From a virus (taxonomy: Duplodnaviria > Heunggongvirae > Uroviricota > Caudoviricetes): DNA of 18,148 nucleotides. Below the pieces are notes generated by a model. The model made no database searches, had not been told where the DNA came from, and saw only the letters and a list, made by a program, of their open reading frames with translations. Location of the stretch: the IMG/VR virus record IMGVR_UViG_2703718826_000002. The stretch is one strand, 5' to 3'. A program made the position numbers and the translations under genes. Shown piece by piece: positions 137 to 17,906 of this stretch; position 1 is the stretch's first letter, and each line of letters starts with the position of its first letter.

Positions 137-346
137 ATGGCTTTCATTCAACCAACCATCGACGACGTTAGACATTGCTCTAACGCTTTATCTGTAGACC
201 CTGCCGAAACCGACGCAGCCCGCGCCATTGCTGAACACTACTCAAAGATATCCAATCAGGAGTACCGCATCACCCAAGACGACCTGGATGACCTCACTGA
301 CACAATCGAATATCTCATGGCAACTAACCAGTTAGACTCACAATAA
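137..346 (+). CDS. hypothetical small protein (69 aa)
   Basis: Intact ORF with GAGG Shine-Dalgarno-like motif about 8 nt upstream of the ATG; acidic, no recognisable catalytic motif. Confidence 0.35.
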   Translation: MAFIQPTIDDVRHCSNALSVDPAETDAARAIAEHYSKISNQEYRITQDDLDDLTDTIEYLMATNQLDSQ

Positions 347-389
347 ATGCACTAATAAATCTATTATTTTCGTTTGATCCCTCTATAAT
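346..389 (+). promoter_or_regulatory. candidate C1-type operator (346-362, AATGCACTAATAAATCT, 14/17 to consensus) overlapping a promoter with TATAAT -10 (384-389)
   Basis: Operator-like 17-mer directly after the stop of the 69-aa ORF; consensus -10 hexamer about 70 nt upstream of the 283-aa gene start. Confidence 0.35.
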
Positions 390-456
390 ATAGGTCAGTA
401 ATGACCGGTTTTCTCAGCCGGGCGTTATTGACCATGTCAATTCTGGAGGAGGATCA

Positions 457-1308
457 ATGATAAATTATGTCTACGGCGAACAACTGTACCAGGAGTTCGT
501 CAGCTTCAGGGATCTCTTTCTAAAAAAAGCTGTTGCACGCGCCCAACACGTTGATACAGCCAGCGACGGTCGTCCTGTACGCCCGGTTGTCGTTCTACCG
601 TTCAAAGAAACTGACAGCATTCAGGCTGAAATTGATAAATGGACTTTAATGGCGCGGGAACTGGAACAGTACCCAGACCTCAATATCCCAAAGACTATTT
701 TATATCCAGTGCCTAACATCCTTCGCGGTGTGCGTAAGGTTACAACTTATCAGACAGAAGCTGTGAACAGCGTCAACATGACCGCTGGCCGCATTATTCA
801 TCTGATTGATAAGGACATTCGCATCCAAAAAAGCGCGGGGATCAATGAGCACAGTGCGAAATACATAGAGAACCTGGAAGCAACAAAAGAGCTAATGAAG
901 CAGTACCCGGAGGATGAAAAATTCCGTATGCGCGTACACGGCTTTAGCGAAACAATGCTGCGCGTCCACTACATTTCCAGTAGCCCTAACTACAATGATG
1001 GTAAATCAGTTAGTTACCATGTGCCACTGTGTGGCGTGTTTATCTGCGATGAAACTCTCCGTGATGGAATTATCATCAACGGTGAATTCGAAAAAGCAAA
1101 ATTTAGCCTTTATGACTCCATAGAACCGATCATCTGCGACCGCTGGCCGCAAGCAAAAATATATCGCCTGGCAGATATTGAAAATGTAAAAAAACAAATT
1201 GCCATCACTCGCGAAGAGAAAAAGGTTAAGTCAGCCGCATCAGTTACGCGCAGCCGTAAAACCAAGAAGGGGCAGCCAGTAAACGACAACCCCGAAAGCG
1301 CGCAATAA
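457..1308 (+). CDS. hypothetical phage/plasmid protein (283 aa) with basic C-terminal tail; possibly replication-associated
   Basis: Long ORF with strong RBS GGAGGAGG 6 nt upstream of ATG. Lys/Arg-rich C-terminus suggests nucleic-acid binding. Family assignment (RepL-like or YagK/YfjJ-like) could not be verified. Confidence 0.6.
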   Translation: MINYVYGEQLYQEFVSFRDLFLKKAVARAQHVDTASDGRPVRPVVVLPFKETDSIQAEIDKWTLMARELEQYPDLNIPKTILYPVPNILRGVRKVTTYQTEAVNSVNMTAGRIIHLIDKDIRIQKSAGINEHSAKYIENLEATKELMKQYPEDEKFRMRVHGFSETMLRVHYISSSPNYNDGKSVSYHVPLCGVFICDETLRDGIIINGEFEKAKFSLYDSIEPIICDRWPQAKIYRLADIENVKKQIAITREEKKVKSAASVTRSRKTKKGQPVNDNPESAQ

Positions 1309-1311
1309 ATT

Positions 1312-1333
1312 ATGCCCGGCATCAACCGGGCAT
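1312..1333. terminator. hairpin (8-bp stem ATGCCCGG/CCGGGCAT, 6-nt loop) between convergent genes; candidate bidirectional terminator
   Basis: Perfect inverted repeat 4 nt after the stop of the 283-aa gene; moderately U-rich flanks on both strands. Confidence 0.4.
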
Positions 1334-1558
1334 TCTTCCATTATTCAGCCGCCACCGGTTTTAACAAGCCAGCATCGAGCAGTTTACGCGTCAACCACTG
1401 CTGGCCTTTACCCGTTAATTGAGGCGTCAACCGTATCTGGTAGCCATCTTCATCATCCAGCACCACTTCTTTCACCGTGAAATACCCGCGTTGATGTACT
1501 GCTGGAACGGTACATTTTTACGGCCTCCGGACGCTATCAGAATGCCGTTCTCCCGTAA

Positions 1559-2455
1559 CTAGGCAAACAGCGCATTTTGTTTAAGTCCAACGACCTTTGC
1601 AAAATTCCCAATCAGGATCCCTTTAGCTACTGATACCCGGTCGGCAAAATCGACTTTAGAAGCGGCAGCCACCAGCTGCTGATTTAGCTGGTGGGCTTTC
1701 TGTTCCAGAAGTTGCTTTTGTTCAGCTAACTCGGCAGCCAGGCGCAGAGCTTCTGGAAGCGTCTGGGGGATTGCGACCGGTTGCTGTTCTTTTTGTCGGA
1801 AGTAGCTGTCTTCCAGTTTTTCAAAGAATGCCCATGCCTGATCGGTTTCGAGCATTTTAGCGTGACGGGCAGCTCCTCGTTCTGTCCAGAGGATGAGAGA
1901 GCGCGCTTTGGGGGAGACTGGATTTTGTGAGTAGTTTAAAGCTACCCGCAAATTTTTCAGCTCATCGCCAATAACCTTGAAAAAGTGCTTCGCTTCAACA
2001 AAGCGTACTTTGTTCTCATGATGATTCTGGCGAATGCGAATCGCTTCTGTACCATACCCCTTAGCAAGAGTTTCGGTTGTTACGACACGCACTCCCTGCC
2101 ACTCCAGAACGGGAATTTCATCCGACTGATTTTGAACAACCACCAGCTCTGATTCCTGAACTGAAGGTGCATGAACTTTTTCTGATTTAACGTTAGTAGC
2201 TTTCATTCTGTGTGCCTCCTTGCGTGCTTCGGCTGCGACGGTTGCGTAATTCAGATGCCCCTGTTCGAGCAGGTATTCGCGGATATCAGACAGCAGGATG
2301 CGGTGAACTGCGTTCTTGTCCTTTCTCCGGTAAAGTTGTTTGGTGATCATGAAGTAGTTGGCAATAACGCCCGGTATATCCCTAGTACTGATACAGGCAG
2401 TGTGCTGTTCAATTGCCTCGATCATCTCTTCACGGGTAACTAATGACGTTCTCAT
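1559..2455 (-). CDS. phage antirepressor-family protein (Ant-like; Bro-N/ORF6N-like central region and KilA-C-like C-terminus)
   Basis: 298-aa ORF. Central motif VVTTETLAKGYG...VRFVEAKHFFKV and C-terminal VSVAKGILIGNFAKVVGL resemble antirepressor domains. Start overlaps upstream ORF stop (ATGA). Confidence 0.6.
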   Translation of the reverse strand: MRTSLVTREEMIEAIEQHTACISTRDIPGVIANYFMITKQLYRRKDKNAVHRILLSDIREYLLEQGHLNYATVAAEARKEAHRMKATNVKSEKVHAPSVQESELVVVQNQSDEIPVLEWQGVRVVTTETLAKGYGTEAIRIRQNHHENKVRFVEAKHFFKVIGDELKNLRVALNYSQNPVSPKARSLILWTERGAARHAKMLETDQAWAFFEKLEDSYFRQKEQQPVAIPQTLPEALRLAAELAEQKQLLEQKAHQLNQQLVAAASKVDFADRVSVAKGILIGNFAKVVGLKQNALFA

Positions 2456-2673
2456 AGTCCCTCCTGAGCAGAAGCGTTAACAGGGAGGCACCAGTAACTG
2501 AGAGAATTGCGCAAATCGGTTGAAAAGCGGGCAGAGAAAATGCAGGGAGCGTCAGGAAGCTGAGAATGGGCCTCATCTTCTGTCGGTGCAATAACGAAGT
2601 GATAGTGACGTTTTTGGCAGGAGTAAAAGCGCCAGATAAATTCAGGATGAATTGGGGTAGGGACAGTAGCCAT
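2452..2673 (-). CDS. small protein (73 aa) translationally coupled to the antirepressor; icd-like position
   Basis: Strong RBS AAAGGAGG 8 nt upstream of ATG; ATGA overlap with the Ant-like gene, as in P1 immI icd-ant coupling. Confidence 0.5.
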   Translation of the reverse strand: MATVPTPIHPEFIWRFYSCQKRHYHFVIAPTEDEAHSQLPDAPCIFSARFSTDLRNSLSYWCLPVNASAQEGL

Positions 2674-2858
2674 AATGGCAGCCTCCTTTGACTAAGTTAA
2701 GGAGCTACCGCGTGAGGTCTCAATCTCAATGGCGGTAGCACTGACTGGGTTGAGACTACCGGCGTCAAAGGGAACCGGCCTGCCTTTCGGCAGCCCAGCC
2801 AGCACTACCATTGATTTCGGAGCTAAACGCTACGTATGGCTGTGCGATGGCATGACAC

Positions 2859-2881
2859 AAAAAAAGACGCTTTCGGCGTCT
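2859..2881 (-). terminator. intrinsic terminator (minus strand): stem GACGC/GCGTC, loop CGAAA, followed by U7
   Basis: GC stem-loop immediately followed by seven U in minus-strand sense; sits between the operator-controlled promoter at about 2990-3015 and the icd-like gene. Confidence 0.55.
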
Positions 2882-2980
2882 GTGTCGCCTTTGACATTAT
2901 CCGGGGTCTCAATCCCGGCACCCGTTTTAATGAGGTGCCTGATAAGCATAAACCGAAAATGCCTCAAGGCGCAAGAGGTC
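2882..2980 (-). ncRNA. candidate short structured transcript or leader (c4-like antisense-RNA position)
   Basis: About 100-115 nt between the predicted promoter (-10 TACATT at 2987-2992) and the terminator; contains stem-loops (CCGGG...CCCGG). No convincing protein-coding frame. Confidence 0.2.
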
Positions 2981-2986
2981 AGGTTC

Positions 2987-3029
2987 AATGTAACATCGGC
3001 AGTCAAAAAACACAATTTATTAGAGCAAG
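2987..3029 (-). promoter_or_regulatory. C1-type operator (3013-3029, CTTGCTCTAATAAATTG on minus strand, 15/17) overlapping the -35 (TTGTGT) of a promoter with -10 TACATT
   Basis: 17-mer begins 2 nt after the terminase stop codon; 17-nt spacer between hexamers. Confidence 0.5.
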
Positions 3030-3032
3030 TGT

Positions 3033-4160
3033 TTATTCATTAAGCCATGCCAGAGCTTCATCAACCTGCGCTTCGTCTTCGACGCTAAGCACTTCGTCCT
3101 GGGGAACATAATCCGCCAGCATAGCGAAACAATATGTATCCCAATGGTCTGGTGAGTGCAGGTTGAGTTTTTTCTTCATATCCTCCTTACTCATCACCTT
3201 CCATTGACCTGCGGAGTTAATCCCTACAGGGATTTTCGACGCTTCCTCAATAGTTTCATTACCCTTATCCAGTCTCATACGACCAGATTTTACGGCCTCT
3301 GCGGCTTGAACGTTGGCATAAGCACGTTTATCAAAGTACAGGCTCTTATCTTCACGGCTATGCATCTTTTTACCCCAGCGTATACGCTGTACGGTAATAC
3401 CATAATACTCGTACATCAGATCCGCCGTTGCTTTACCCAGGCCATCGCCGTCTATCGCTATGGTGATATTGGGGAATCGCTCAGGATTACATTCTGCGAA
3501 AATTTTGGCGGCAAGCTGCGTTTCTGTAACGTCTGTGTATTCCAGCATTCGATAGTTGATTACACGGCGTTTATTTCGCTGGCCGGACACCATCATGATA
3601 TTGATAAAGGACTTATCCCGTCCTGTACCACCAGCAACGTCCACACATGCAAGCCAGCCCCATCCTTTGGCAATCTTGACTTTCCGCCGCGTCGCACGTT
3701 CAACCTCATCACGTCCAAGAAGGAAGCCGTCCTGTAATTTAGGGAATAGGCCGCGTACCTTAATCATGTACATAGGGTTATCACGCCCGCCGTACTCCGC
3801 CAGCTTCATTTTGATAAATTCTGACGTTACCAGCGGTGATTCCTCACTGTTAAGCGTGATCGCCGTATAAACGCCATCTGGGTTACCAGGACGCTTGGCC
3901 AGTTTATGGTGAGTATCGTAGAAATAGCCGCTTGGGCGTGTAGGCTGTGACAGTAATAAGATGCGGTTATCCTGTCCGGTAAGAGCACCGGTGATGATAC
4001 CGAAAGCTCTATCACTGACACCGGAGGCTTCATCGATAATATACAGAAGATGATCTGCGTGTTCACCGGCGAGAACTTCTTCACTTCCCAGACGAAAGCC
4101 CTTCGGTACTACAGTCCATACACCTTTACCAGTAGACTGGCCCCCTGAATCTCCAGACAA
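3033..4160 (-). CDS. terminase large subunit, C-terminal portion (Walker B plus nuclease domain); gene interrupted upstream
   Basis: 375-aa ORF starting at a TTG; contains Walker B-like [11 protein letters not shown] and acidic nuclease-domain motifs. In-frame stop 3 codons upstream of the putative start. Confidence 0.75.
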
Positions 4161-4165
4161 CCAGT

Positions 4166-4183
4166 ATCACTTATTTAAGTGAT
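4166..4183. repeat. 18-bp perfect palindrome ATCACTTATTTAAGTGAT at the break between the two terminase ORFs
   Basis: Revcomp of ATCACTTA is TAAGTGAT; provides stop codons in all three minus-strand frames. Confidence 0.8.
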
Positions 4184-4605
4184 AACAGGTGTCTGGAAAT
4201 ATAGGGGCAAATCCAACCAGTAACCTCATAGAAAGCGGTTTCTGTCAGAACAAAATAATCAGCAAGCCATGGAAAACGGCTGGTGGCAGTAGCCCAGTTT
4301 ATCTTGATGTACTTGAATATACCGGTCATTACCTGCTGAATTTTGTTCGCAACGATAATGGCGCGGGCACCGGGATACATGATTATGAACAACATGATCA
4401 TGATAGAAGTCATGTCTGATTTCCCGGTACCGTGACCAGACGAAACAGATGTCTTGCTACCCTGTTCCTGCACAGACTCAATAATCAGATCCTGCTGCCA
4501 GGTAGGTGTTTTGCCGAACAAAACATCAGCGGCCGCAATCCAGTCATAACGATATAGCGCCACCAGCTCGCGCCAACGTGGATCCGTTACGCAACTTCTG
4601 GCCAT
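4171..4605 (-). CDS. terminase large subunit, N-terminal portion (Walker A SGHGTGKS)
   Basis: 144-aa ORF with P-loop; ends in TAA inside the palindrome. Start overlaps the stop of the upstream acidic protein (TAATG). Confidence 0.7.
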
Positions 4606-4976
4606 TAATCATCATCCCCGTATAGCTTGCGGGTAACTTCTTCGTCTTCCTCCTCGTCTTCGTCCAGGTCTTGTTCCAGCCATGGGTCGTTTGATACACC
4701 TTCAGTATCAACATCTCCATAACCGCCTGTATCAACGATATCGGCGATTTCTTCCCTACGCTGCTCAATCCACAATGCGGCATCGGCGCGGCGGTTGGCG
4801 GCCCGTTCTCGCGCAACTTTGTCCAGATCTTCAAGAGAAGGGCCACCGACGGCTGTTTGCCTTTCCTCATCATCGGTATTGGTCTTAGGAGCACGCAGAT
4901 CGGCTTTGATTTGCTCCAGCATCAGGGGCGGCACTTTCCCGCCATGCGCCTCGATGAATTCAGCTGCTTCCAGCAC
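4605..4976 (-). CDS. acidic packaging-associated protein, probably C-terminal part of a terminase small subunit
   Basis: 123-aa ORF with poly-acidic C-terminus (DEDEEEDEE); translationally coupled to the large terminase. Frame is open upstream to 5009, overlapping the 104-aa ORF. Confidence 0.45.
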
Positions 4977-5236
4977 TGACCAGTTATTTTCACGCTTTCG
5001 TTCGTACTGTCATCAATCAAAACAGACGAATACTTAGACACAGCGATAGCTTTTAAGCGCAGATAAACATCGCGCTTATCGACATCCAGATGCGGGTATT
5101 CCTTTTCAAGAATTGCTGCGAGTTCTTTCGCTGATAGAAGAGATTTAGTGCGGATCATGTAATTCGCAATCTCGTACGATGTTATTCGTGAGTGATTTAT
5201 TTCCATGAAGTGGCGTCCCTGCCAGTTAAGTAACAT
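4922..5236 (-). CDS. putative N-terminal (DNA-binding) part of the small terminase-like protein; C-terminal tail likely out of frame
   Basis: 104-aa ORF; alternative start at 5206 (MEINH...). Last 18 residues ([18 protein letters not shown]) are the alternate-frame reading of the 123-aa ORF N-terminus. Confidence 0.4.
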
Positions 5237-5281
5237 CCTGTCACCTACTGATTAGCCCATGTCAACTAATCAACGTGGAAT

Positions 5282-5323
5282 ATAATACCATCGATTAAAG
5301 AAATAGCAATACATTAGAGCAAT
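5282..5323 (-). promoter_or_regulatory. C1-type operator (5307-5323, ATTGCTCTAATGTATTG on minus strand, 14/17) overlapping promoter (-35 TTGCTA, -10 TATTAT)
   Basis: Begins immediately after the stop of the 347-aa gene and precedes the packaging genes; 16-nt spacer between hexamers. Confidence 0.45.
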
Positions 5324-5324
5324 T

Positions 5325-6368
5325 TTATCTAACGCTCGACGAGTAACTTGTGATAGCGCCGACTCCAAGCGCGTAATCAAAGAACAATCGTTGATGCATC
5401 GCCAGCCTACCGTGCGTCTTCTCCCAATTATCGCGGTCACGCTCAATATCACGCTGGCATGACTGGCACAGAGGAATTGCGTAAATGTCATGCGCGCATA
5501 ATCGACTATGACGAACGATATAAGGCGTAATGTGAGCGCCAGCTCCCGCAGCTCCACAGCCACAGCATGGACGGGAAGCCACAAAGTCCATGTACTCGGG
5601 CAATTTTAGCGATTGAAGTTTTGGTATTTTGAAATGCGCCATACCTGGGTCGGAGTCAACATCCACAGGGCATACTTTTGCACGCATCGGCGCGGCGCGT
5701 TCTTCCATCATCTGAACATATGCTGTAGCGCGATCGTCATACGGGCGAATATCCGCCTCTTTCAGAGGTCCGCTATCCTGCGGAGCAGCCTTCATCTTAT
5801 TTATTGATATGCGGCAGACTTCTTCCGGCATCAGGTGCATCATGTTACGCATGAAAGCCCACCAGCACAGCTCCTGAATACTTAAATCATGGCTATCTGA
5901 AAGGCCCATTTCCTGACGGGCGACATCCAGTATCCAGTTAACGCGATTATTGTGCAGCGTTTCTTTCAGCTCATTAAAACCACGCATCCGGTAATGGTTA
6001 TCGTGATGCCAGCACAACAACACCGCGCTATTGTCTCGTTCAGCGTGGACAATATGGTTGTCACACCAGCTACGATCTGCGGCCTGGCATTGCCCCTCTT
6101 TCCTGCGCAACCACGCCACCAGCGCGTCAATTCCACCAATACGGCGAAACAGTTCATCGCTGTTAAAAAACGGCTGCAACGCCTCATTTGTTGCTATAGT
6201 TTGCTCGGAAGCAACGAGGCCGTCGTCCATGTGCTCGATTAACTCACGCGGCACCGGCTCCATAATAAATTTACGGCCAGCCTCCACCAGCTTTCTGACC
6301 TCCTGATCCACTTTGAACGTGGCGAGGCCAAGTTCTTTCTGTACAAAGGGAGTAATTACGGCTTTCAC
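5325..6368 (-). CDS. hypothetical phage protein (347 aa) with Cys/His-rich C-terminal region (putative metal-binding)
   Basis: GTG start with AAGGTG SD; C-terminal [12 protein letters not shown]...C..C.SCQ cluster. Possibly DUF968-like or the pdcB-position gene of P1-like elements; not verified. Confidence 0.6.
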
Positions 6369-6395
6369 ATCACACCTTTAATCACTGATTGGGCT

Positions 6396-6575
6396 TTATA
6401 TGCTGCCCGGCATTCTCTGTTTAAGCACAACCATTTCCTGACGGCATAACACAGCAATAGCGGTCCTGGCACCAATTTGCTTACCAGCCAGGTATTGCTT
6501 TACCTCGCGGCGACTCACGCCATCAAGAAGCATCTTTAACGCTTCACGGGACAATTTGTTGTATTTACGTGCCAT
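6396..6575 (-). CDS. small basic protein (59 aa) downstream of doc (pdcA-like position)
   Basis: Start chosen at internal ATG (6575) with GGAG SD 9 nt upstream, 4 nt after the doc stop; the ORF-track start at 6596 would overlap doc. Confidence 0.4.
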   Translation of the reverse strand: MARKYNKLSREALKMLLDGVSRREVKQYLAGKQIGARTAIAVLCRQEMVVLKQRMPGSI

Positions 6576-6579
6576 TAAT

Positions 6580-6960
6580 CTACTCCGCAGAACCATACAA
6601 TCTACGTAACGTGTCGGCGACAGAAGATACAGATATCTCGCCAGTCGCAGCGCCTACAGTAAGGTCTGCCAGTTCAGGTGAATCAAATACCTGCACCCCG
6701 TTACGGCGTAGAAATAGCAGCGCACTGTTTAGCGCGGTACGCTTATTGGCATCATTGAATATATGCCCTCTCGCCGTAGCCACCAGGTAGGTGGCGGAGA
6801 CTTCGAAAAGGTCGGTGATCTCTTCGTAGGCAACTCTGGCCTGAACTCTCCCGATAATGGCCTCTGCCCTACCCGGATCAGACATTCCCGGCAGGCCGCC
6901 GTAGCGGTTTATATTCGCATCATGAAGCGCAATAAGTTCTTCCGGTGATATATGCCTCAT
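6580..6960 (-). CDS. doc: Doc toxin (death on curing; Fic-fold kinase that phosphorylates EF-Tu)
   Basis: 126-aa protein matching recalled P1 Doc almost residue for residue ([17 protein letters not shown]...[11 protein letters not shown] Fic-like motif); coupled to phd. Confidence 0.92.
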
Positions 6961-7181
6961 TATCGGTTAACCAGTTCCTTGTTGGTGGAGTCCAGGGTGT
7001 CAAACAGGGATGCAAATTCAGCATCCAGCGCCGCTTTTTTGTAGGCTTCAAAAGTAGCCTTGCTGACAATTACTGCTGGCTCACGGCCTCTGCGGGTGAT
7101 TTCAACCTCTTCCCCGGCCTCAACATTGTTGAGCACTTCAGAAAGGTTGCCCCGCGCGGTACGGAAGTTAATGGATTGCAT
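6960..7181 (-). CDS. phd: Phd antitoxin (prevent host death)
   Basis: 73-aa protein [49 protein letters not shown]... matching recalled P1 Phd; 1-nt overlap with doc. Confidence 0.92.
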
Positions 7182-7185
7182 AAAT

Positions 7186-7232
7186 ACCTCGTGTACTCGT
7201 TATGTGTACACAATTATAAACTTCACAGACAT
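7186..7232 (-). promoter_or_regulatory. phd-doc promoter/operator: -10 TATAAT (7213-7218, minus strand) with palindromes TGTGTACACA (7203-7212) and GTGTAC (7191-7196)
   Basis: Palindromic GTGTAC-containing sites between the -10 and the phd RBS (GAGG), consistent with Phd/Doc autoregulation. Confidence 0.5.
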
Positions 7233-7296
7233 AAAGCACCAGCACTTTGCGGCTTAACAAACCTCTAGGCAGGTCATTCGTAGCCTAATGTCCGAA

Positions 7297-7325
7297 CTGC
7301 TAAAGCATCCAAGTTGCTGTAGAAT
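7297..7325 (+). promoter_or_regulatory. candidate hsdM promoter with extended -10 (TGT-TAGAAT, 7317-7325)
   Basis: TGnTAGAAT about 30 nt upstream of the hsdM ATG; weak -35. Confidence 0.3.
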
Positions 7326-7357: not shown

Positions 7358-8916
7358 ATGAAAATGACAAGTATTCAACAACGTGCAGAGCTTCATCGTC
7401 AAATCTGGCAAATTGCTAACGATGTCAGAGGTTCGGTCGATGGATGGGATTTTAAGCAATACGTTCTGGGCGCGCTTTTCTACCGTTTTATCAGCGAAAA
7501 TTTTTCCAGCTATATTGAAGCCGGTGATGACAGCATCTGTTATGCGAAACTGGATGACAGCGTAATTACTGATGACATTAAAGACGATGCCATCAAAACC
7601 AAAGGCTACTTCATCTACCCAAGTCAGCTTTTCTGCAACGTAGCTGCGAAAGCAAATACCAATGACAGACTGAACGCAGATTTAAACAGCATCTTCGTTG
7701 CTATCGAAAGTTCTGCTTACGGCTACCCTTCAGAAGCAGACATCAAAGGTTTGTTTGCTGATTTCGATACCACCAGTAACCGCCTGGGTAACACCGTTAA
7801 AGATAAAAATGCCCGCCTGGCTGCGGTTCTGAAAGGGGTTGAAGGGTTAAAACTTGGTGACTTCAACGAACATCAGATTGACCTGTTCGGTGATGCCTAT
7901 GAGTTCCTGATTTCTAACTATGCGGCAAATGCCGGTAAGTCAGGCGGTGAGTTCTTTACACCGCAGCACGTCTCCAAGCTGATTGCACAACTGGCTATGC
8001 ACGGGCAGACCAACGTTAACAAAATCTACGACCCGGCAGCGGGTTCCGGCTCACTGTTGTTGCAGGCTAAAAAGCAGTTTGATAACCATATCATCGAAGA
8101 AGGCTTTTTTGGTCAGGAAATCAACCATACAACCTATAACCTGGCACGTATGAACATGTTTTTGCACAACATCAACTACGACAAGTTTGATATCAAGCTG
8201 GGTAATACACTGACTGAGCCACACTTCAGAGATGAAAAACCGTTTGATGCCATCGTTTCTAACCCGCCGTATTCGGTGAAATGGATTGGCAGCGATGACC
8301 CGACGCTGATTAACGATGAACGTTTTGCCCCGGCTGGCGTTCTGGCCCCCAAATCCAAAGCTGACTTCGCCTTTGTACTACATGCGCTGAACTATCTTTC
8401 TGCCAAAGGTCGTGCTGCGATTGTTTGCTTCCCGGGTATTTTTTACCGTGGCGGCGCGGAGCAGAAAATCCGTCAGTATCTGGTTGATAATAACTATGTC
8501 GAAACCGTGATTTCACTGGCACCGAATCTGTTCTTTGGCACCACTATTGCCGTCAATATTCTGGTGCTGTCTAAACATAAAACGGATACCAAAGTTCAGT
8601 TTATTGATGCCAGCGAATTGTTCAAAAAAGAGACTAACAACAATATCCTGACCGATGCCCATATCGAACAGATTATGCAGGTATTTGCCGGCAAGGAAGA
8701 TGTTGCCCATCTGGCGAAATCTGTTGCGTTTGAGACTGTTGTCGCGAATGACTATAACCTGTCGGTGAGCAGTTATGTTGAAGCGAAAGATACTCGCGAA
8801 ATTATCGATATCGGTGAGCTGAATGCTGAGCTGAAAACCACGGTCAGCAAAATCGACCAGTTGCGCAAAGATATTGATGCGATTGTGGCTGAAATTGAAG
8901 GCTGCGAGGTGCAGAA

Positions 8917-8920
<4 letters not shown>
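7358..8920 (+). CDS. hsdM: Type I restriction-modification system, methyltransferase subunit HsdM (Type IC, EcoR124-family)
   Basis: 520 aa; AdoMet motif [10 protein letters not shown] and N6-adenine motif NPPY (AIVSNPPYS); N-terminus matches recalled EcoR124I HsdM. Stop overlaps hsdS start (ATGA). Confidence 0.95.
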
Positions 8921-10152
<1,232 letters not shown>

Positions 10153-10159
10153 TTGAGCA

Positions 10160-10273
10160 TTTTTACAGACCGGACCACCTTAACATCCGGTCAGTATATA
10201 GACTATTTTCTACACGCCGGAAGTCGCCCTTAACTCCCTTCCGGCCCTTGCCAGACGGCACAAAGGATGCGCT
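10160..10273 (+). promoter_or_regulatory. hsdS-hsdR intergenic region with two inverted repeats (GACCGGA...TCCGGTC; GCCGGAAG...CTTCCGGC); candidate hsdR promoter/regulatory region
   Basis: 121-bp gap, consistent with Type IC organisation in which hsdR has its own promoter; no strong sigma70 hexamers identified. Confidence 0.3.
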
Positions 10274-13200
10274 ATGACTCATCAAACACACACCATTGCT
10301 GAATCCAATAACTTTATCGTCCTTGATAAGTACATCAAAGCTGAGCAAACAGGCGACAGCTACCAGAGCGAATCGGACCTGGAACGTGAACTGATTCAGG
10401 ACCTGCGGAATCAGGGCTATGAATTTATATCCGTAAAATCACAGTCGGCGATGCTAGCCAATGTTCGGGAACAGCTTCAGAACCTCAATGGTGTGGTGTT
10501 TAATGACAGCGAGTGGCGGCGTTTCACGGAGCAGTATCTGGATAACCCGAGCGATGGCATTCTGGATAAGACCCGTAAAATCCATATCGACTATATTTGC
10601 GACTTTATTTTTGATGACGAGCGTCTTGAGAACATCTATTTGATAGATAAAAAGAATCTCATGCGCAATAAGGTGCAGATTATCCAGCAGTTTGAACAGA
10701 CGGGTTCTCATGCTAACCGTTATGACGTCACGATCCTGGTTAATGGTTTACCGCTGGTGCAAATCGAACTAAAAAAACGCGGGGTGGCGATTCGTGAGGC
10801 TTTCAACCAGATACATCGTTACAGTAAAGAGAGTTTTAACAGCGAAAATTCCCTGTTTAAGTATCTGCAGCTGTTCGTCATTTCCAACGGCACTGATACC
10901 CGTTATTTTGCCAACACCACAAAGCGCGATAAAAACAGTTTTGACTTCACCATGAACTGGGCTAAATCAGACAATACACTGATTAAAGACCTCAAAGACT
11001 TTACCGCTACCTTTTTCCAGAAACATACTCTGCTTAATGTTCTGGTGAACTACAGCGTTTTTGACAGCAGTCAGACACTACTGGTAATGCGACCGTACCA
11101 GATTGCCGCCACCGAGCGCATTCTGTGGAAAATTAAGAGTTCCTTTACAGCGAAGAACTGGTCAAAACCGGAAAGCGGTGGGTATATCTGGCACACTACC
11201 GGTTCTGGTAAAACCCTCACCAGCTTTAAAGCCGCGCGTCTGGCAACAGAGCTGGACTTTATTGATAAAGTCTTCTTTGTGGTCGACAGGAAAGACCTCG
11301 ATTACCAGACCATGAAGGAATATCAGCGTTTTTCGCCAGACAGCGTCAACGGCTCGGAAAATACCGCAGGTCTTAAACGAAATCTGGATAAGGACGATAA
11401 CAAAATTATCGTCACTACTATTCAGAAACTCAATAACCTGATGAAAGCAGAAAGCGATCTGCCTGTATATAATCAGCAAGTGGTGTTTATATTTGATGAA
11501 TGCCACCGCAGCCAGTTTGGAGAAGCGCAGAAAAACCTGAAGAAGAAATTCAAACGCTATTATCAGTTTGGTTTTACCGGCACCCCTATTTTCCCGGAAA
11601 ACGCCTTAGGCTCAGAAACAACCGCCAGCGTATTTGGTCGTGAATTGCATTCGTATGTAATTACCGATGCGATTCGTGACGAAAAAGTGCTCAAATTCAA
11701 GGTGGACTACAACGATGTGCGGCCACAGTTTAAGTCTTTAGAGACAGAAACTGACGAGAAAAAACTGAGTGCGGCTGAAAATCAGCAGGCGTTTCTTCAT
11801 CCCATGCGTATTCAGGAAATCACGCAATATATTCTGAATAATTTCCGCCAGAAAACCCACCGTACCTTCCCTGGCTCAAAAGGTTTTAATGCTATGTTGG
11901 CAGTGAGCAGCGTGGATGCCGCGAAAGCCTATTATGCGACGTTTAAACGGTTACAAGAAGAAGCCGCTAATAAATCGGCTACCTATAAACCGCTGCGTAT
12001 TGCGACAATCTTCTCCTTTGCCGCCAATGAAGAACAAAATGCCATTGGTGAAATTTCCGATGAAACTTTTGATACCAGCGCAATGGACAGCAGTGCTAAA
12101 GAGTTTCTGGACGCTGCAATTCGTGAATATAACAGCCATTTTAAAACTAACTTTAGCACCGACAGTAACGGTTTTCAGAACTACTATCGTGATTTAGCCC
12201 AGCGGGTTAAAAATCAGGATATCGATCTGCTAATTGTCGTGGGGATGTTTTTAACCGGCTTCGATGCTCCAACATTAAACACGCTATTCGTCGATAAAAA
12301 CTTGCGTTTTCACGGCCTGATGCAGGCATTCTCCCGCACCAACCGCATTTATGACGCGACTAAAACCTTCGGTAATATTGTCACGTTCCGGGATCTGGAA
12401 CGCTCAACCATTGATGCCATAACGCTGTTTGGTGACAAAAATACCAAAAATGTGGTTTTAGAAAAGAGTTATGCAGAGTATATGGAAGGCTTTACTGATG
12501 CTGCCACTGGTGAAGCTAAACGCGGCTTCATGACAGTAGTTTCAGAACTGGAACAACGGTTCCCTGACCCTACCAGTATTGAAAGTGAAAAAGAGAAGAA
12601 AGACTTCGTTAAACTGTTTGGCGAATACCTGCGTGCCGAGAACATCCTGCAAAACTATGATGAATTTGCCACGCTAAAAGCCCTGCAACAAATCGATCTT
12701 AGCGATCCTGTTGCGGTAGAAAAATTCAAAGCAGAACATTATGTGGATAATGAAAAGTTCGCTGAATTGCAAACAATTCGTCTCCCTGCTGATCGCAAGA
12801 TTCAGGATTATCGTTCTGCCTATAACGATATTCGCGACTGGCAGCGCCGTGAGAAAGAAGCTGAGAAAAAAGAGAAATCAACCACTGACTGGGATGACGT
12901 AGTTTTTGAGGTCGATTTGCTGAAGTCTCAGGAAATAAACCTGGATTATATCCTTGGACTGATTTTCGAACACAATAGACAAAATAAAGGCAAGGGCGAA
13001 ATGATCGAAGAGGTCAAACGCTTAATTCGTTCAAGCCTGGGGAACCGGGCGAAAGAGGGCCTGGTGGTCGATTTTATTCAGCAAACGAACCTGGATGATT
13101 TACCAGACAAAGCCAGTATCATTGAGGCATTCTTTACGTTTGCTCAACGCGAACAGCAACGTGAAGCAGAAGCATTGATAAAAGAAGAAAATCTCAATGA

Positions 13201-13390
13201 AGATGCAGCAAAACGCTATATTCGCACGTCTTTAAAACGCGAATACGCCACCGAAAATGGCACAGAATTAAACGAAACATTACCAAAACTTAGTCCGTTG
13301 AATCCGCAATATAAAACGAAAAAACAGGCAGTTTTCCAGAAAATCGTCTCGTTTATTGAGAAGTTTAAAGGCGTAGGCGGAAAAATATAG
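10274..13390 (+). CDS. hsdR: Type I R-M restriction subunit HsdR (Type IC; PD-(D/E)xK nuclease plus SF2 helicase motor)
   Basis: 1038 aa; nuclease motif VQIELKK, Walker A TGSGKT, DEAH-like FDECHRS; size matches recalled EcoR124I HsdR. Confidence 0.95.
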
Positions 13391-13406
13391 CCCAATTCGT
13401 ATTTTT

Positions 13407-13434
13407 CTTGCGGGTTCTTAATTAAACCCGCAAG
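13407..13434. terminator. hairpin (9-10-bp stem CTTGCGGGT/ACCCGCAAG) 17 nt after hsdR stop, without U-tract; possible terminator or RNA-stabilising stem
   Basis: Perfect inverted repeat; A-rich rather than U-rich 3' flank on either strand. Confidence 0.3.
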
Positions 13435-13469
13435 AGACCGTGGGGTTCCAAATGGCTAATATACTCCCC

Positions 13470-13556
13470 TTACCCATGCGCGACAATGCTGCCAAAAGTG
13501 ATAGAGAACAGCCAGAAATAGATCGCGGCCATAATGATTTTGAATGCCGTGTTCAT
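13470..13556 (-). CDS. candidate small hydrophobic membrane peptide (28 aa, MNTAFKIIMAAIYFWLFSITFGSIVAHG)
   Basis: Below the ORF-track size cut-off; strong RBS AGGAG 8 nt upstream of ATG; single predicted transmembrane helix. Confidence 0.3.
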   Translation of the reverse strand: MNTAFKIIMAAIYFWLFSITFGSIVAHG

Positions 13557-13583
13557 ATTTTCAGCTCCTGTGATTGATTGGAT

Positions 13584-13615
13584 ACATGCCGCGCCTTGCG
13601 GCATGTTTTTATTTT
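13584..13615 (+). terminator. rho-independent terminator (plus strand): 9-bp stem ACATGCCGC/GCGGCATGT, loop GCCTT, then TTTTATTTT
   Basis: Textbook hairpin plus U-tract; likely terminates hsdR or an antisense transcript. The same hairpin would sit in the 5' leader of the minus-strand peptide mRNA. Confidence 0.6.
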
Positions 13616-13638
13616 CACTTTCTCTGTTTTAAAAATCA

Positions 13639-13655
13639 AGATTTATTAGAGCAAT
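13639..13655 (-). promoter_or_regulatory. C1-type operator (ATTGCTCTAATAAATCT on minus strand, 16/17 to consensus)
   Basis: Best consensus match in the window; immediately follows the TAA stop of the HAD gene; promoter-like TTGATT-N17-GAAAAT downstream. Confidence 0.55.
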
Positions 13656-14161
13656 TATTGTTGATGGAGAAGCGCGTTTCCATACTCCCTGACCATTAAC
13701 GTAAGTACGCCGTGACTCCTGAAAACACGCGCCACTTCAATCTTATCTTCCAGCGCGAACGCAATTTTACTTAGACCAATTTTCTTCAGGAGATCAATCT
13801 TTGCTGGACCGTCATTTCTGTCATCGGTGGCAGGACGCATAGATAGCAAAGGCTCAGCCCCATTTGTTACGTGCTTACGCAACCAGGCTCGTGTTTTATC
13901 CCTGGCTATCTCACAGCGCCCGGTTACAAACCAGAGGGTGTAAATGCCGGACAACTGGCGCACCATATCAATAACTGGAGTGATGGGAGCATCAGTGTCA
14001 CAGGCAAGGTTAAACTCGTTCCAGTGCTCTGTTAATGCACCTTTGCCAGGTGGTGGAAGTAAATGCAGCCTGTCTTCCGTTGCCTCTGATATCGTCCCAT
14101 CAATATCTACTATGACGATGTACGGACGTTCCTGGTGTGCGTGTTTATTGAAAATACTCAA
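13655..14161 (-). CDS. HAD-superfamily phosphatase (polynucleotide 3'-phosphatase / nucleotidase-like)
   Basis: 168 aa; HAD motif I VDIDGT, later conserved T/S, K and DD motifs; TTG start with GGAGG SD. Confidence 0.6.
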   Translation of the reverse strand: MSIFNKHAHQERPYIVIVDIDGTISEATEDRLHLLPPPGKGALTEHWNEFNLACDTDAPITPVIDMVRQLSGIYTLWFVTGRCEIARDKTRAWLRKHVTNGAEPLLSMRPATDDRNDGPAKIDLLKKIGLSKIAFALEDKIEVARVFRSHGVLTLMVREYGNALLHQQ

Positions 14162-14180
14162 ATGCCCTCCTCATTGGACG

Positions 14181-14213
14181 AAAAAAATGCTGGTGGGAGC
14201 ACTCCACCAGCAT
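14181..14213 (-). terminator. rho-independent terminator (minus strand): 10-bp stem ATGCTGGTGG/CCACCAGCAT, 7-nt loop, then U6-7
   Basis: Perfect stem followed by a U-run in minus-strand sense, between the truncated orfA-like ORF and the HAD gene. Confidence 0.6.
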
Positions 14214-14233
14214 TAAAAGTGACACTGTAACTA

Positions 14234-14460
14234 TCAGCGAACGTAAATAGTGCCGCCGTTCTCTTTTTCCCATGCATCGCTACGTGCATAGCAAACATCG
14301 AGAAGTCTTCTTGCCGCAGTTTCCTCTACCCCAGCTTCGGCTTCGCGGAGAATACTGATGATCTGTTCGTCGGAAAAACGCTTCTTCATGGGGATGTCCT
14401 CATGTGGCTTATGAAGACATTACTAACATCGGGGTGTACTAATCAACGGGGAGCAGGTCA
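14234..14460 (-). mobile_element. IS3-family (IS407-like) left-end remnant: terminal repeat-like TGACCTGCTCCCC plus truncated orfA (51 codons)
   Basis: Minus strand from 14460 begins TGACCTGC...; ORF 14234-14389 starts MKKRFSDEQIISILREAEAG (typical IS3 OrfA N-terminus) with GAGGA SD, diverges, and stops after a conserved GG. Confidence 0.4.
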
Positions 14461-14889
14461 AACCATCGCGGTCATTTCATTGAGTTTTGTTTCCAGCTCA
14501 ATGCTTATACGTTCGGCATTATCAGCACGCTGGTTGGCGTCATGCGTCGCATCGTCGATCGCGTCCTGTTGCTGGCGTTTCAAATGTTCAATTTGCAGCT
14601 GAAGCTCTTCAATTTCTTTACCCTTCAGACCGAGATCCAACTGCATATTTTCAGCTGCATCTACCAGGGAGTTATGGCTATCAGCTTCTGCGTTATAAAC
14701 ATCAATAAGCTGTGCGTGAAGCATCTCCGCTGACTGAACCGCATTATCAAAAAAACGTGCTGTGAGGTCATCACAACTAACGCGGCGTTGCGCGGCCCGG
14801 ATGTTCTGGATAATGGCCGGGATACCGGCATTCAGGACATCAGGGATAGATACATTTTCGATTGATTGGTTTTGTGCTGAAGTGCTCAT
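14458..14889 (-). CDS. hypothetical coiled-coil protein (143 aa)
   Basis: Intact ORF with heptad-rich, Gln/Glu-rich C-terminal half; abuts the 72-aa ORF. Confidence 0.45.
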   Translation of the reverse strand: MSTSAQNQSIENVSIPDVLNAGIPAIIQNIRAAQRRVSCDDLTARFFDNAVQSAEMLHAQLIDVYNAEADSHNSLVDAAENMQLDLGLKGKEIEELQLQIEHLKRQQQDAIDDATHDANQRADNAERISIELETKLNEMTAMV

Positions 14890-14890
14890 T

Positions 14891-15109
14891 TCAAAGTTCC
14901 GTATTAGCTTGTGCTTCGGTCATTTTTCCTAAGTATGAAGGTGGAAGGACTACGCAATTTGTATCCAGTCCCTCACCTATGGCAGCCTGTAAAATTCTGG
15001 CTAAGGTGAGTCTCTTGTTGCGATACCTGGTGATGACATGCCTGATACCGCCGGTCGGCGTAACAAAGGCGATCAGCCAGTAGTGATATTTCCGTCGGAA
15101 TGGCCACAT
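14891..15109 (-). CDS. hypothetical small protein (72 aa)
   Basis: ORF with AAGGTG SD; first gene downstream of the dual-operator/terminator element. Confidence 0.4.
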   Translation of the reverse strand: MWPFRRKYHYWLIAFVTPTGGIRHVITRYRNKRLTLARILQAAIGEGLDTNCVVLPPSYLGKMTEAQANTEL

Positions 15110-15123
15110 AGTGCACCTTATAG

Positions 15124-15189
15124 ATTGCTCTAATAAAAAACGTGATGAGTGTACATCACGTTTTAAAAATATGGAATTATTAGAGCAAT
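15124..15189. promoter_or_regulatory. dual inverted C1-type operators (15124-15140 plus strand; 15173-15189 minus strand) flanking a perfect hairpin terminator (15140-15161)
   Basis: ATTGCTCTAATAAAAAA and revcomp ATTGCTCTAATAATTCC (each 14/17); central stem ACGTGATG/CATCACGT with A/T tracts on both sides. Confidence 0.55.
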
Positions 15190-15190
15190 A

Positions 15191-15892
15191 TTATTCTGAT
15201 TCTCGCTCAAAAAATGAGCTGATAAGGGGAAGCCAATCCTCTGACACTTCGCGAGGTCGCGGTTTGCCGTGGAAAAAGATTATTCGGCAGTCTTTTGGTA
15301 ATGCCCCATTCCCCCTGGAGTAACGCGCGCTCGCATATTTCGAACCAGGTTCCACAACATCGGCCTTGTAACTTACAAACCATCCCGGATACAGATCCTG
15401 AAATGCTGGTGTATCATCACCCATAACCTTCCGCAAAAACCCCTGCTCACCCCAGCATTCAGTAGTAACACAACGAGCAATCCAACCTTCCGGATCTTGC
15501 CAGAATGCACTCCAGATATGCGCTTTTACACTATTTGGTATCCACAGGGCACCGCTGCCACGATATTGTGGATGGTAAAAATCCCTAAGCATGGTGAAGC
15601 TGGTTGGTGGATTCTCTAGGATTGGGCGTATATCACCGGCAATAACCGTGTCCAAATCCAGATAGAACAGATCATCGGTTATATCCGGTCGGAACAACTC
15701 GATTTTCGCCCACCAGCCACGGCACTTTTGCCACTGGTTGATCAATGGGACAACTTTGACGCCAGGTACATGTAAACGCTTCAGGTCTGTCAGGCAAATA
15801 ATTTCATAGCCTTTTGGCAGTTGATTAACCAGCCACTGCACATCGGAAGCGTTATAGTCACCACCAGAGCGAAGAACTAAAGCAATCTTCAT
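15191..15892 (-). CDS. GT-A fold glycosyltransferase, family-8-like (DxD motif YLDLDTV; HxxGxxKP-like FFHGKPRP)
   Basis: 233 aa; N-terminal beta-strand KIALVL, DxD and C-terminal His/Lys motif resemble retaining GT8 enzymes (LgtC/RfaJ type). ATGA overlap with the upstream phosphatase gene. Confidence 0.5.
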
Positions 15893-16581
15893 GCTGCACC
15901 ATCACCTTTCACTTTCATCAATGTCAGGTTTCCGCAAAATACGGCACCTGTGTCGATATAATGCTGATTCCAGAATGTCTTCGGGCTTTTCACCGGAGTG
16001 TGACCAAAGATAAAACGATCTGCGCCAGAAATTTCGCCACCAATATCATCCATCGAATCACTGATACGCTCGCGCGCCCAGACAACGTTGAAAAGCGGCA
16101 CCTCCTTACCGAATTGATATTCATTATCCGGATAGTCGGCATGGGCTATAACGATAGTTTCTTGCCCGGTGTTCAACTCAATGATATAGGGCAGTCGTCT
16201 TACCAACTCCACCAGCGCCCTGGCTAATATTTCCTGATCAGCGTCCAGCATGAAGAACCATTGACCGCCATTCATTAGCCAGTTATTCACGTTGCCATCT
16301 GGACTTAACGCATCAATCATCAGCCGCTCATGGTTCCCCATCACTGCCCTGAACCAGGGCATCTGCAATAGTTCCAGACATTCGACATTTTCAGTACCGC
16401 GATCGATAAGGTCGCCGACCGATATCAGTAAATCCTGCGCCGGGTCAAAATCCACACGATGGAGTTCGGACATCAGTCTGGTGTAGCAACCATGCAGATC
16501 ACCAACAACCCAGACATTCCTGTATTTGGTACCGTCGATACGGTGATAAATTGTGGGTGCCATCATGTATTCTTCAGCCAT
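15889..16581 (-). CDS. PPP-family serine/threonine protein phosphatase (lambda ORF221 / PrpA-PrpB type)
   Basis: 230 aa; metallophosphoesterase motifs GDLHGC, GDLIDRG, GNHE, and C-terminal YIDTGAVF as in E. coli PrpA. Confidence 0.9.
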
Positions 16582-17189
16582 TCTTTAAGAGTCATCTGCG
16601 GAATACCTCCCATTTTCCCGCATGAAACAACGTCAATCTGTTCACGCGCAGACTGGAATAACAAAGGCAGGTGACTTAGATTTTTTGGCGTGCCGCCGGA
16701 GTGAACGCGTGGTTCTTGTGTAGCGTCAACGCCCACCAGGGCGACATGTTTGAATCCGATATGGAAAGCCAGGTTCAGAGCACCATATGCACTATTGCCG
16801 CTGGCAATTTCATTCTCATCTTCGCAAAGGCCGAAATGTGCGGACCAGCGCCACGCCCACCACTCGGGAGAATTCGTATTTTTTGGCTCCGTGCCGCGCT
16901 CAGCCACACGACGGAAGCACAGAACGCCATCTCTGACTTCACGTTCTTTAACATCGGGTAGTGCCATGCAATAACAAACACCACGGCGACGGCGGCCACG
17001 ACCAACGCGCCGCATATTGTCTGGCGATGGATCAAGGGTGAAAAAATAAGAAGCGCGGTTAAGCCAGTCGATGGCCCCATTGACCGCTATAATCGGCACT
17101 CCGCGCGGCGCAACAAAGTTTGCGGCGCTTGGGCCACTGCCGACGATAATAACGCGATCACTGCCTCTAAATTTATTCTTGGGAAACAT
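16563..17189 (-). CDS. GxGPS-motif Rossmann-like protein A, sialyltransferase/Maf/MptE-like (GT42/DUF115-like fold)
   Basis: 208 aa; VIIVGSGPS ... IIAVN ... [12 protein letters not shown]...VALVGVD pattern resembles CstII-type GNGPS ... SG..A..A..G....L.G.D motifs; paralogue of protein B. Confidence 0.5.
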
Positions 17190-17749
17190 TGAATTGCACT
17201 GCTCCTACTTGCATTCAAAATATGTAAATCTGCGTGTTTTTTGCGGGTATCCAGGAACTGCTGTTGCCATTTTGAAATAGACACCTGCGTTGGATTCCGT
17301 AGGGCTTGAGGGTGCGCGCCATGCCAATGAAGGCCGTTTTGCAGAGAACAGTCATAGCCGACTAATACCACTACTTCAGCCCCTGATTCAGCAGCCAGAC
17401 TGATAGCCTGCGCGCCGCTATTTACCCCTTCCGCCGGTCCACAATATCGCCTGTACTCCAACGAAAATGATTTCGCCGCCGCCAGGTTGGCTGTCACTTT
17501 GCGGAATCTCCCTCCCGGTATGGTGGATCCGTATTGCTTCCACCATGACAAATCACCGGCGTATAAGGCATAAATGTCATCGAACATCTGCCAGGAATTG
17601 TTAACCGCGATGATTGAACAGCCAGTTTTTTCTATAGCAGCACAGTCCTCACGAGTGAGTGACGGACCGCTACCGACACAAAAAACAGTCCTAGTCGCCC
17701 TGGGTGGTATGTTCATTCTCAGCTGCAAATTCAGCCTCCAGGCGAGCAT
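17087..17749 (-). CDS. GxGPS-motif Rossmann-like protein B, paralogue of A (sialyltransferase/Maf/MptE-like)
   Basis: 220 aa (possibly starting at internal MNIPP, 17716); VFCVGSGPS ... IIAVNN ... NSGAQAISLA...VVVLVGYD; 3' end overlaps the start of A by about 100 nt in another frame. Confidence 0.5.
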   Translation of the reverse strand: MLAWRLNLQLRMNIPPRATRTVFCVGSGPSLTREDCAAIEKTGCSIIAVNNSWQMFDDIYALYAGDLSWWKQYGSTIPGGRFRKVTANLAAAKSFSLEYRRYCGPAEGVNSGAQAISLAAESGAEVVVLVGYDCSLQNGLHWHGAHPQALRNPTQVSISKWQQQFLDTRKKHADLHILNASRSSAIQCFPRINLEAVIALLSSAVAQAPQTLLRRAECRL

Positions 17750-17889
17750 TCATTTCAGCGATTACCGGGTCCACTACAGCATCTGCTTCCTGTTCATTAC
17801 GCGGCATGATCGATGCCAGCGATTCATAATTAGCCTTGAATGACACGATTATTCTCCCGATGTTAATGTGCGCTATATCAAAGAGCACA

Positions 17890-17906
17890 TATGCACTAAT
17901 TAATTT
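17890..17906 (+). promoter_or_regulatory. weak C1-operator-like site (TATGCACTAATTAATTT, 13/17), same ATGCACTAAT variant as the site at 346-362
   Basis: Located in the intergenic region between the VRR-NUC gene and the downstream operon. Confidence 0.25.

Follow-up and report, generated by a model that had tools for sequence, protein, structure and literature searches.

Dispersed C1 operators and a second immI-like module in a segment of a P1-family phage-plasmid

We characterized a family of 17-bp repeats scattered through IMG/VR virus record IMGVR_UViG_2703718826_000002, an 18,148-nt stretch of DNA that was analyzed over its full length and is referred to here as the window. Judging from their sequences, the repeats are very probably operators of the C1 repressor of a P1-family phage-plasmid, and they are predicted to control separate early and lytic transcription units. 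This operator system is already known and is annotated at the orthologous positions of phage P1; what is new is confined to a second immI-like module between pacB and c1, namely to its operator and its RNA layer, of which we found no description in the literature searched.

A family of C1-type operators

A weight matrix trained on 13 operators that the P1 GenBank record (AF234172) annotates gave eight sites of 16.5-26.0 bits in the window (Table 1), whereas on simulated sequence the same matrix averaged 0.33 sites at ≥14 bits. The exact 12-mer TTGCTCTAATAA occurs four times (3017-3028, 13643-13654, and 15177-15188 on the minus strand; 15125-15136 on the plus strand), as against 0.00 in 200 shuffles, and the 17-mer consensus is present in six copies with no more than three mismatches, where 0.07 would be expected. 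The motif family is real and stands far above chance. All seven sites listed in a first-pass annotation of this DNA exist at the positions and in the orientations it reported; the exact 12-mer, which it assigned to five of them, is found at four only, since 5307-5323 reads TTGCTCTAATGT. Two annotated P1 operators escaped that annotation, namely Oc1c at 174-190 and the weak Oc1b at 357-373. Likeness among the copies is limited to the 17 bp and a T-rich stretch of 10-13 nt on the 3′ side, with a mean information content per column of 1.40 bits within the 17-mer vs. 0.37 in the 5′ flank and 0.53 in the 3′ flank. Since similarity collapses outside the 17-mer and its short tail, the family is not a dispersed insertion sequence (IS), the counter-explanation that the first-pass annotation had itself raised.

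P1 carries 22 dispersed C1 operators, and their consensus, ATTGCTCTAATAAATTT, is the one that had been quoted for the window (PMC8546580). By BLAST-offset mapping, eight window sites coincide with AF234172 protein_bind features labeled "phage repressor C1," and six of the seven sites noted at first are the P1 operators Op99a, Op94, Op88, Op86b, Op86a, and Op83, in keeping with the original proposal of dispersed, asymmetric P1-type operators. The 17-mers match P1 exactly apart from the first base of Oppp, and the operator-promoter stretches share no less than 98% identity with P1, with similarity dropping downstream of Pc1 and of Oppp. For the P1 counterparts, binding of C1 and its enhancement by Lxc/Bof are known (literature in AF234172; PMC8546580), and P1 experiments on these near-identical sequences suggest that C1 binds and represses at the shared sites of the window as well.

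By its similarity to known elements, the window is a segment of a P1-like (RCS47/IncY-type) phage-plasmid of the P1 family. Its shared parts are 95-98% identical to phages P1, P7, RCS47, SJ46, and phi456 (megablast), and the best match among the phages, plasmids, and E. coli genomes searched, none of which is identical, is E. coli H15 plasmid A (IncY replicon), with 99.9% identity across 96% of the window. BLAST blocks show the window to be inverted relative to the P1 map at 79-94 kb. Gene order by BLAST to P1 is immC (coi, c1), pacB, pacA, lpa, pdcB, pdcA, doc, and phd in the first arm, and pap, pmgS, pmgR, pmgQ, ppp, pmgP, pmgO, pmgN, and pmgM after an hsd cassette. H15 plasmid A is a P1 derivative that is rich in cargo (ttr, lactate-utilisation, ars, and heat-resistance genes) and has lost most P1 structural genes; 12 of its 15 weight-matrix matches fall within the P1-derived arc at 94.7-116.4 kb, and its large cargo regions have almost none. 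P1 homology breaks off at both ends of the window (1-17 and 18132-18148). Upstream of position 1, imcA is cut by an IS5-family element in both H15 plasmid A and RCS47, and in H15 pmgM is truncated and non-P1 DNA is joined after position 18131.

Table 1. Positions of operators, promoters, genes, and RNA elements in the window
Feature	Coordinates	Strand	Details
coi (C1 inactivator)	137-346	+	69 aa; open reading frame (ORF) at P1 coi position (L001 399-608) by BLAST offset; annotated coi in RCS47
Oc1c (Op99c)	174-190	+	ATTGCTCTAACGCTTTA; identical to annotated P1 Oc1c; matrix site, 16.5 bits
Oc1a (Op99a)	346-362	+	AATGCACTAATAAATCT; identical to P1 site; matrix site, 22.8 bits
Oc1b (Op99b), weak	357-373	-	ACGAAAATAATAGATTT; identical to P1 site
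Oc1ab, bivalent operator	346-373		Oc1a plus Oc1b; overlaps Pc1 (-35 360-365; -10 TATAAT 384-389)
c1 (repressor)	457-1308	+	283 aa
ant pseudogene (KilAC/ORF6N antirepressor)	1341-2455	-	Pfam ORF6N and truncated ANT domain
icd-like gene	2452-2673	-	73 aa; "host cell division inhibitor Icd-like protein"
C4 targets before icd	a2 2723-2717; b2 2692-2685	-	a2 UUGAGAC; b2 GUCAAAGG
C4 antisense RNA	2728-2815	-	Rfam RF01695, full length; 75.4 bits vs. gathering score 45; E=1.9e-13
C4 loop sequences	a′ 2756-2750; b′ 2771-2764	-	a′ GUCUCAA; b′ CCUUUGAC
isrK-like RNA	2860-2938	-	Rfam RF01394; 60.2 bits vs. gathering score 50
Intrinsic terminator of isrK-like RNA	2881-2865	-	Followed by T run
C4 target copies in isrK-like RNA	a1 2912-2906; b1 2895-2888	-
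Downstream promoter-like pair	2974-2945	-	TTGCGC 2974-2969, 18-nt spacer, TATGCT 2950-2945; counterpart of P1 P1c4 (former P51b)
Upstream promoter-like pair	3015-2987	-	-35 TTGTGT 3015-3010, 17-nt spacer, -10 TACATT 2992-2987; counterpart of P1 P2c4 (former P51a)
Module C1 operator (candidate)	3013-3029	-	CTTGCTCTAATAAATTG; matrix site, 21.2 bits; positional counterpart of Oc4/Op51
pacB, split	3033-4605	-	C-terminal part 3033-4133, N-terminal part 4217-4605 (BLAST vs. P1, RCS47)
IS-end remnant in pacB	about 4135-4216		82 bp; two imperfect inverted IS ends
lpa, truncated	4922-5236	-	First 77 codons kept, then fused to pacA 3′ part; junction 5004-5006
Plpa	5309-5282	-	-35 TTGCTA 5309-5304, 16-nt spacer, -10 TATTAT 5287-5282; overlapped by Olpa
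Olpa (Op94)	5307-5323	-	ATTGCTCTAATGTATTG; identical to annotated P1 site; matrix site, 19.3 bits
hsdM-hsdS-hsdR cassette	7358-13390		Replaces everything from humD to pmgT
hsdS	8917-10152	+
OpmgT (Op88)	13639-13655	-	ATTGCTCTAATAAATCT; identical to annotated P1 site; matrix site, 26.0 bits; overlaps pap stop codon
pmgR	14891-15109	-	Unit controlled by OpmgRa/OpmgRb pair, as in P1 annotation
OpmgRb (Op86b)	15124-15140	+	Identical to annotated P1 site; matrix site
PpmgR	-35 15188-15183; -10 15165-15160	-
OpmgRa (Op86a)	15173-15189	-	Identical to annotated P1 site; matrix site
Oppp (Op83)	17890-17906	+	TATGCACTAATTAATTT; at annotated P1 Oppp position, one base changed; matrix site
Possible second half-site overlapping Oppp	17901-17917	-	CTTAAAATAATAAATTA; inverted; 10.4 bits

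The repressor gene and predicted control

The first-pass annotation held that a c1-like gene was not in the window. In fact, c1 is present at 457-1308, its product being identical to P1 C1.100 at 281 of 283 residues, and the Prokaryotic Genome Annotation Pipeline (PGAP) calls it "phage repressor protein C1" in a plasmid that is 100% identical across the c1 stretch. That annotation would have counted a replicon without any C1-like repressor as evidence against its reading; c1 was found within the window itself. Since the cognate repressor gene lies alongside its operators, the C1 regulon of the window is self-contained. A Pfam search of C1, Coi, the Icd-like protein, and the pac fragments matched no families, so that the identities of these proteins are taken from BLAST to P1 and from PGAP names.

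Five sites, 3013-3029, 5307-5323, 13639-13655, and 15173-15189 on the minus strand and 346-362 on the plus strand, lie within 0-3 nt of the upstream gene's stop codon. Such a position had been claimed for every strong site, and it fails for 15124-15140, which is placed between PpmgR and the pmgR start codon. The further claim that the sites overlap -35/-10 pairs is borne out by a generic sigma-70 scan for Plpa and by P1 annotation for the other sites shared with P1; among the operator sites, the scan found a consensus-grade promoter at Plpa (5309-5282) only. The Pc1, PpmgT, PpmgR, and PpmgN hexamers are kept at their P1-annotated positions as weak matches. Over the whole window, the generic scan returned 31 promoter-like matches vs. 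30.1 in shuffles, and since this is the shuffle level, promoter assignment rests on the P1 annotation.

We propose that C1 made from the window's own c1 would bind asymmetric 17-bp sites, each overlapping or just downstream of a sigma-70 promoter. It would block RNA polymerase at Pc1, Plpa, PpmgT, PpmgR, and the upstream promoter of the second immI-like module, and at Oppp it would sit just downstream of the promoter, separate early and lytic units thereby being kept off in the plasmid-prophage state. The units so controlled would be c1 (autoregulation through Oc1ab and Oc1c), lpa (Olpa), the former pmgT unit (OpmgT), pmgR-pmgS (OpmgRa/b), and pmgN onward (Oppp). Coi and Ant are known to inactivate C1 (PMC8546580), and Coi, together with Ant where intact, would be expected to do so here. 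Repressor control had previously been proposed for four sets of genes. For the packaging genes, the site in question is indeed a C1 operator, but Olpa (Op94) controls lpa, the late-promoter activator, and not the packaging genes directly. The "small peptide" unit can be equated with pmgR (Op86a/b) and the "downstream small-gene unit" with pmgN onward (Op83), while control of the ant module gains support from the comparison of 3013-3029 with P1 Op51.

Some of the P1-shared operators have features of their own. Op86b and Op86a form a 66-bp near-palindrome, inverted about a central hairpin (AAAACGTGATG...CATCACGTTTT), with the same layout in P1. Oppp resembles the bivalent Oc1ab over 24 nt at 92% identity (17891-17914 vs. 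347-370). Op83 is annotated as monovalent in P1, which has the same sequence with the half-site, and by its sequence Op83 may be bivalent. At OpmgT, pmgT has been replaced by the hsd cassette, and the PpmgT promoters now face the 3′ end of hsdR in convergent orientation (13390-13655), with a hairpin at 13584-13606 in between; C1 derepression at OpmgT might lead to antisense transcription into hsdR.

A second immI-like module between pacB and c1

Of the seven sites originally listed, 3013-3029 alone lacks an annotation in P1. It lies 3 nt past the pacB stop codon and heads a 1.7-kb segment that is absent from P1 and present in RCS47. Reading along the minus strand, this segment comprises the operator, two promoter-like pairs, an isrK-like RNA, a C4 RNA, an icd-like gene, and ant. 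The operator overlaps the -35 element of the upstream promoter-like pair and, in alignment, the operator and the following GTNTTTTT fall on P1 Op51, -35/-10 spacing included. Neither promoter-like pair was recovered by the generic promoter scan, both being too weak, and the upstream promoter at 3015-2987 is recognized only by its alignment with P1 P2c4.

Both a1/b1, within the isrK-like RNA, and a2/b2, before icd, are exact complements of the C4 loops a′/b′, and b2 lies across the Shine-Dalgarno sequence of icd, AAGGAGG (2688-2682). The stop codon of the icd-like gene overlaps the ant start via ATGA (2455-2452). Compared with the 371-aa Ant of RCS47, ant of the window terminates prematurely after codon 298 and has lost 1 nt near position 1488, and PGAP flags it as "frameshifted; internal stop." Of the hallmarks of an immI-type antirepressor operon, the C4 gene, the duplicated targets, and icd-ant coupling are present, and an intact ant is lacking. 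By these features the module is of the immI type and is defective in the window. Upstream of the dead ant, the operator, promoters, C4, and icd-like gene remain intact. PGAP has an ORF at 2692-2811, overlying the C4 gene, that it names "ash family protein"; this call is probably mistaken.

By analogy with P1, C1 may bind and repress at 3013-3029 and would there gate the upstream promoter of the module. The downstream promoter, which is probably constitutive, would keep C4 produced, and C4 would block translation of icd and ant at a2/b2.

Decay of the element and the hsd cassette

Several genes around the operators are damaged. The split of pacB is caused by the 82-bp IS-end remnant; in H15 plasmid A, this point is occupied by a complete IS3-family element of 1.2 kb. 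We take the 82-bp insert to resemble the ends of IS2 (TGGCCCCCTGAATCTCCAGACAACC ... GGTGTCTGGAAATATAGGGGCAAATCCA). P1 and RCS47 have 1,098 bp here that the window has lost by deletion: lpa is left fused to the 3′ third of pacA, and the 5′ part of pacA is gone together with LPpac and the pac site. The Pfam profile BPP1_LPA covers only its positions 1-64 of 131 in the truncated lpa, and the lpa and pacA remnants are partial genes in PGAP. Without LPpac and the pac cleavage site, the element can neither activate late genes nor package its DNA. In pmgS, about 730 bp of the middle are lost vs. P1 and RCS47, 124 bp of unrelated sequence stand in their place (14329-14452), and only an N-terminal ORF of 143 aa is still open (14458-14889). 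With lpa, pacA, pacB, ant, and pmgS damaged, several operators now control gene remnants; pmgR, pmgQ, ppp, pmgP, pmgO, and pmgN are still open downstream of operators.

The P1 record points out that its sequences on the phd and pap sides match what borders the hsd loci of EcoDXXI and R124/3 (AF234172). The hsdS gene of the window encodes two identical target-recognition domains, seen as a 300-nt perfect direct repeat (8931-9230 and 9540-9839), and the domains are linked by three TAEL repeats of 12-nt units (9422-9466). In type IC systems, TAEL-type repeats set the spacer length. An HsdS with two identical domains of this kind should recognize a symmetric site. The hsdS of H15 plasmid A is half-size, as expected from recombination between the repeats.

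Discussion

The reading that best accounts for the repeats, as C1 operators of a P1-family phage-plasmid, has several points weighing against it. C1 binding and expression on the window element itself are deduced from its sequence. The promoters are weak at most sites, with the generic scan recovering Plpa alone and nothing at 3013-3029. As Pfam is without a C1 family, the repressor assignment depends on identity to P1 C1, and the co-repressor Lxc/Bof is not encoded in the window. Several of the regulated genes are remnants, so some sites, though perhaps bound by C1, may be relics without function. Finally, the IMG/VR copies of the module operator described below were retrieved with a pattern that contains the operator, so that they document a constant context and not independent conservation of the site.

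The decay of the element raises the possibility, which we regard as rather unlikely, that the sites are inherited relics of P1 operators that provide no useful regulation in a decayed plasmid, C1 binding being inconsequential. Consistent with this, five genes (lpa, pacA, pacB, ant, and pmgS) are cut short or interrupted, hsd has taken the place of pmgT, and the closest relative, H15 plasmid A, is without most P1 structural genes and carries cargo. However, c1 and coi are intact and the autoregulatory operators of c1 are unchanged; the P1-shared operators are conserved despite the surrounding deletions; and the run of six genes from pmgR to pmgN listed above remains open downstream of operators. 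In any case, the question of relics bears on the present usefulness of the sites and not on their identity as C1 operators.

A more restricted doubt concerns 3013-3029, which could be a chance or hitch-hiking match brought by the ant cassette and not a functional C1 operator. The site is annotated in no record examined, is off consensus at positions 1 and 17, and has no consensus promoter detectable by the generic scan. Nevertheless, we consider this quite improbable. At 21.2 bits the site is comparable to the proven Olpa (19.3) and Oc1a (22.8), and it aligns with Op51 and with the -35/-10 spacing of P51a type. Copies of the cassette in P1-type hosts also have the operator, which reads TTTGCTCTAATAAATTG upstream of the module in RCS47 and vB_EcoM-673R5, TTTGCTCTAATGAATTG in plasmid CP099080, and GTTGCTCTAATTATTTT in the IncY plasmid CP145648, where the module lies at a different locus with different flanks. 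In contrast, a scan of D6-type modules (D6 and two related plasmids) for C1-type operators found none, indicating that the operator is not intrinsic to the cassette. When IMG/VR was scanned with a 24-nt pattern made of the operator core and its 3′ flank, 62 copies were found in 61 contigs. Similarity to the pacB end accompanies all 62 copies, immediately upstream in 61. Downstream of the operator come isrK at a fixed distance (61 copies), icd (58), and ant (51). Three operator variants occur among these 62 copies, and all keep the core TGCTCTAAT, although the core was part of the search pattern. About 216 PLSDB plasmids contain at least 80% of the module's regulatory region.

An origin of the repeat as part of a dispersed mobile element, either an IS end or a miniature inverted-repeat transposable element, is scarcely credible and was rejected by the flank analysis: IS debris is present, including the 82-bp remnant, and a repeat finder puts four copies in a 30-nt family, but information content falls away in the flanks, the copies have no inverted-repeat partners, target duplications, or transposase association, and they coincide with annotated P1 C1 operators.

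As to what the C1 operators and the module mean together, we tentatively suggest, at somewhat less than even confidence, that in RCS47-type phage-plasmids c1 is neighbored by a second antirepressor circuit, which is gated by C1 and controlled by C4. In such a circuit, an Op51-like operator/promoter would appear to have been fused to an isrK-C4-icd-ant cassette of the lambdoid/D6 kind, with an RNA specificity unlike that of P1 immI, and a remnant with a dead ant may persist as a trans-acting C4 donor. If so, the C4 remnant would give immunity against relatives with the same cassette. RCS47-type phage-plasmids commonly carry resistance genes, and the module could bear on their induction and heteroimmunity. 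Current annotations of the RCS47-type second module miss both its C1 operator and a complete C4/isrK RNA layer. The remainder of the regulon adds little biology, being a textbook case, yet it was recognizable from raw sequence by a reader without tools, and its sequences are preserved, one Oppp base apart, in a P1-derived plasmid that can neither package DNA nor activate late genes.

In the P1 record (AF234172), the operators hold the same positions relative to coi, c1, pdcB, pap, pmgQ/pmgR, and pmgM/pmgN, with the same annotated promoters, and Oc1d and Oc1e map outside the window. P1 differs in that its downstream targets lpa, pmgT, and pmgS are intact, whereas here they are truncated, replaced by hsd, and internally deleted, respectively. 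Insertion of ant between pacB and c1, along with "two short hypothetical orfs," has been described for pTZ20_1P and RCS47 (Venturini et al., 2019; PMC6906374). The insertion point and the ant gene are the same as in the window, where ant is inactivated. Neither that paper nor the phi456 paper mentions the operator at 3013-3029 or the C4 and isrK RNAs. Cassettes of lambdoid prophages (Gifsy-1 IsrK/AnrP and Stx phages; PMC4825925) and of D6 also have isrK and C4 RNAs followed by icd-like and antirepressor genes. The D6-type cassettes examined are without an upstream P1 C1 operator, whereas the cassette in P1-type hosts is headed by an Op51-like operator/promoter.

The closest parallel is with P1 immI itself, whose parts (Oc4/Op51, P2c4/P1c4, a1/b1, C4, a2/b2, icd, ant1/ant2) occur in the same order. 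The module of the window lies between pacB and c1, whereas P1 immI adjoins sim and kilA; an isrK-like RNA with a terminator takes the place of the P1 a1b1 leader; and Ant is, in contrast to P1 immI, an ORF6N and KilAC protein encoded by a pseudogene. C4 recognition uses UUGAGAC/GUCAAAGG here vs. UUGACAG/GUUAGUG in P1 immI, and since these sequences differ, C4 of the window should not pair with P1-type immI targets. Operator and C4 are 214 nt apart here, compared with 203 nt in P1 immI, and the two modules have in common an operator over the upstream -35 element, a second promoter downstream, doubled C4 targets, b2 lying over the icd ribosome-binding site, and the overlap of icd with ant.

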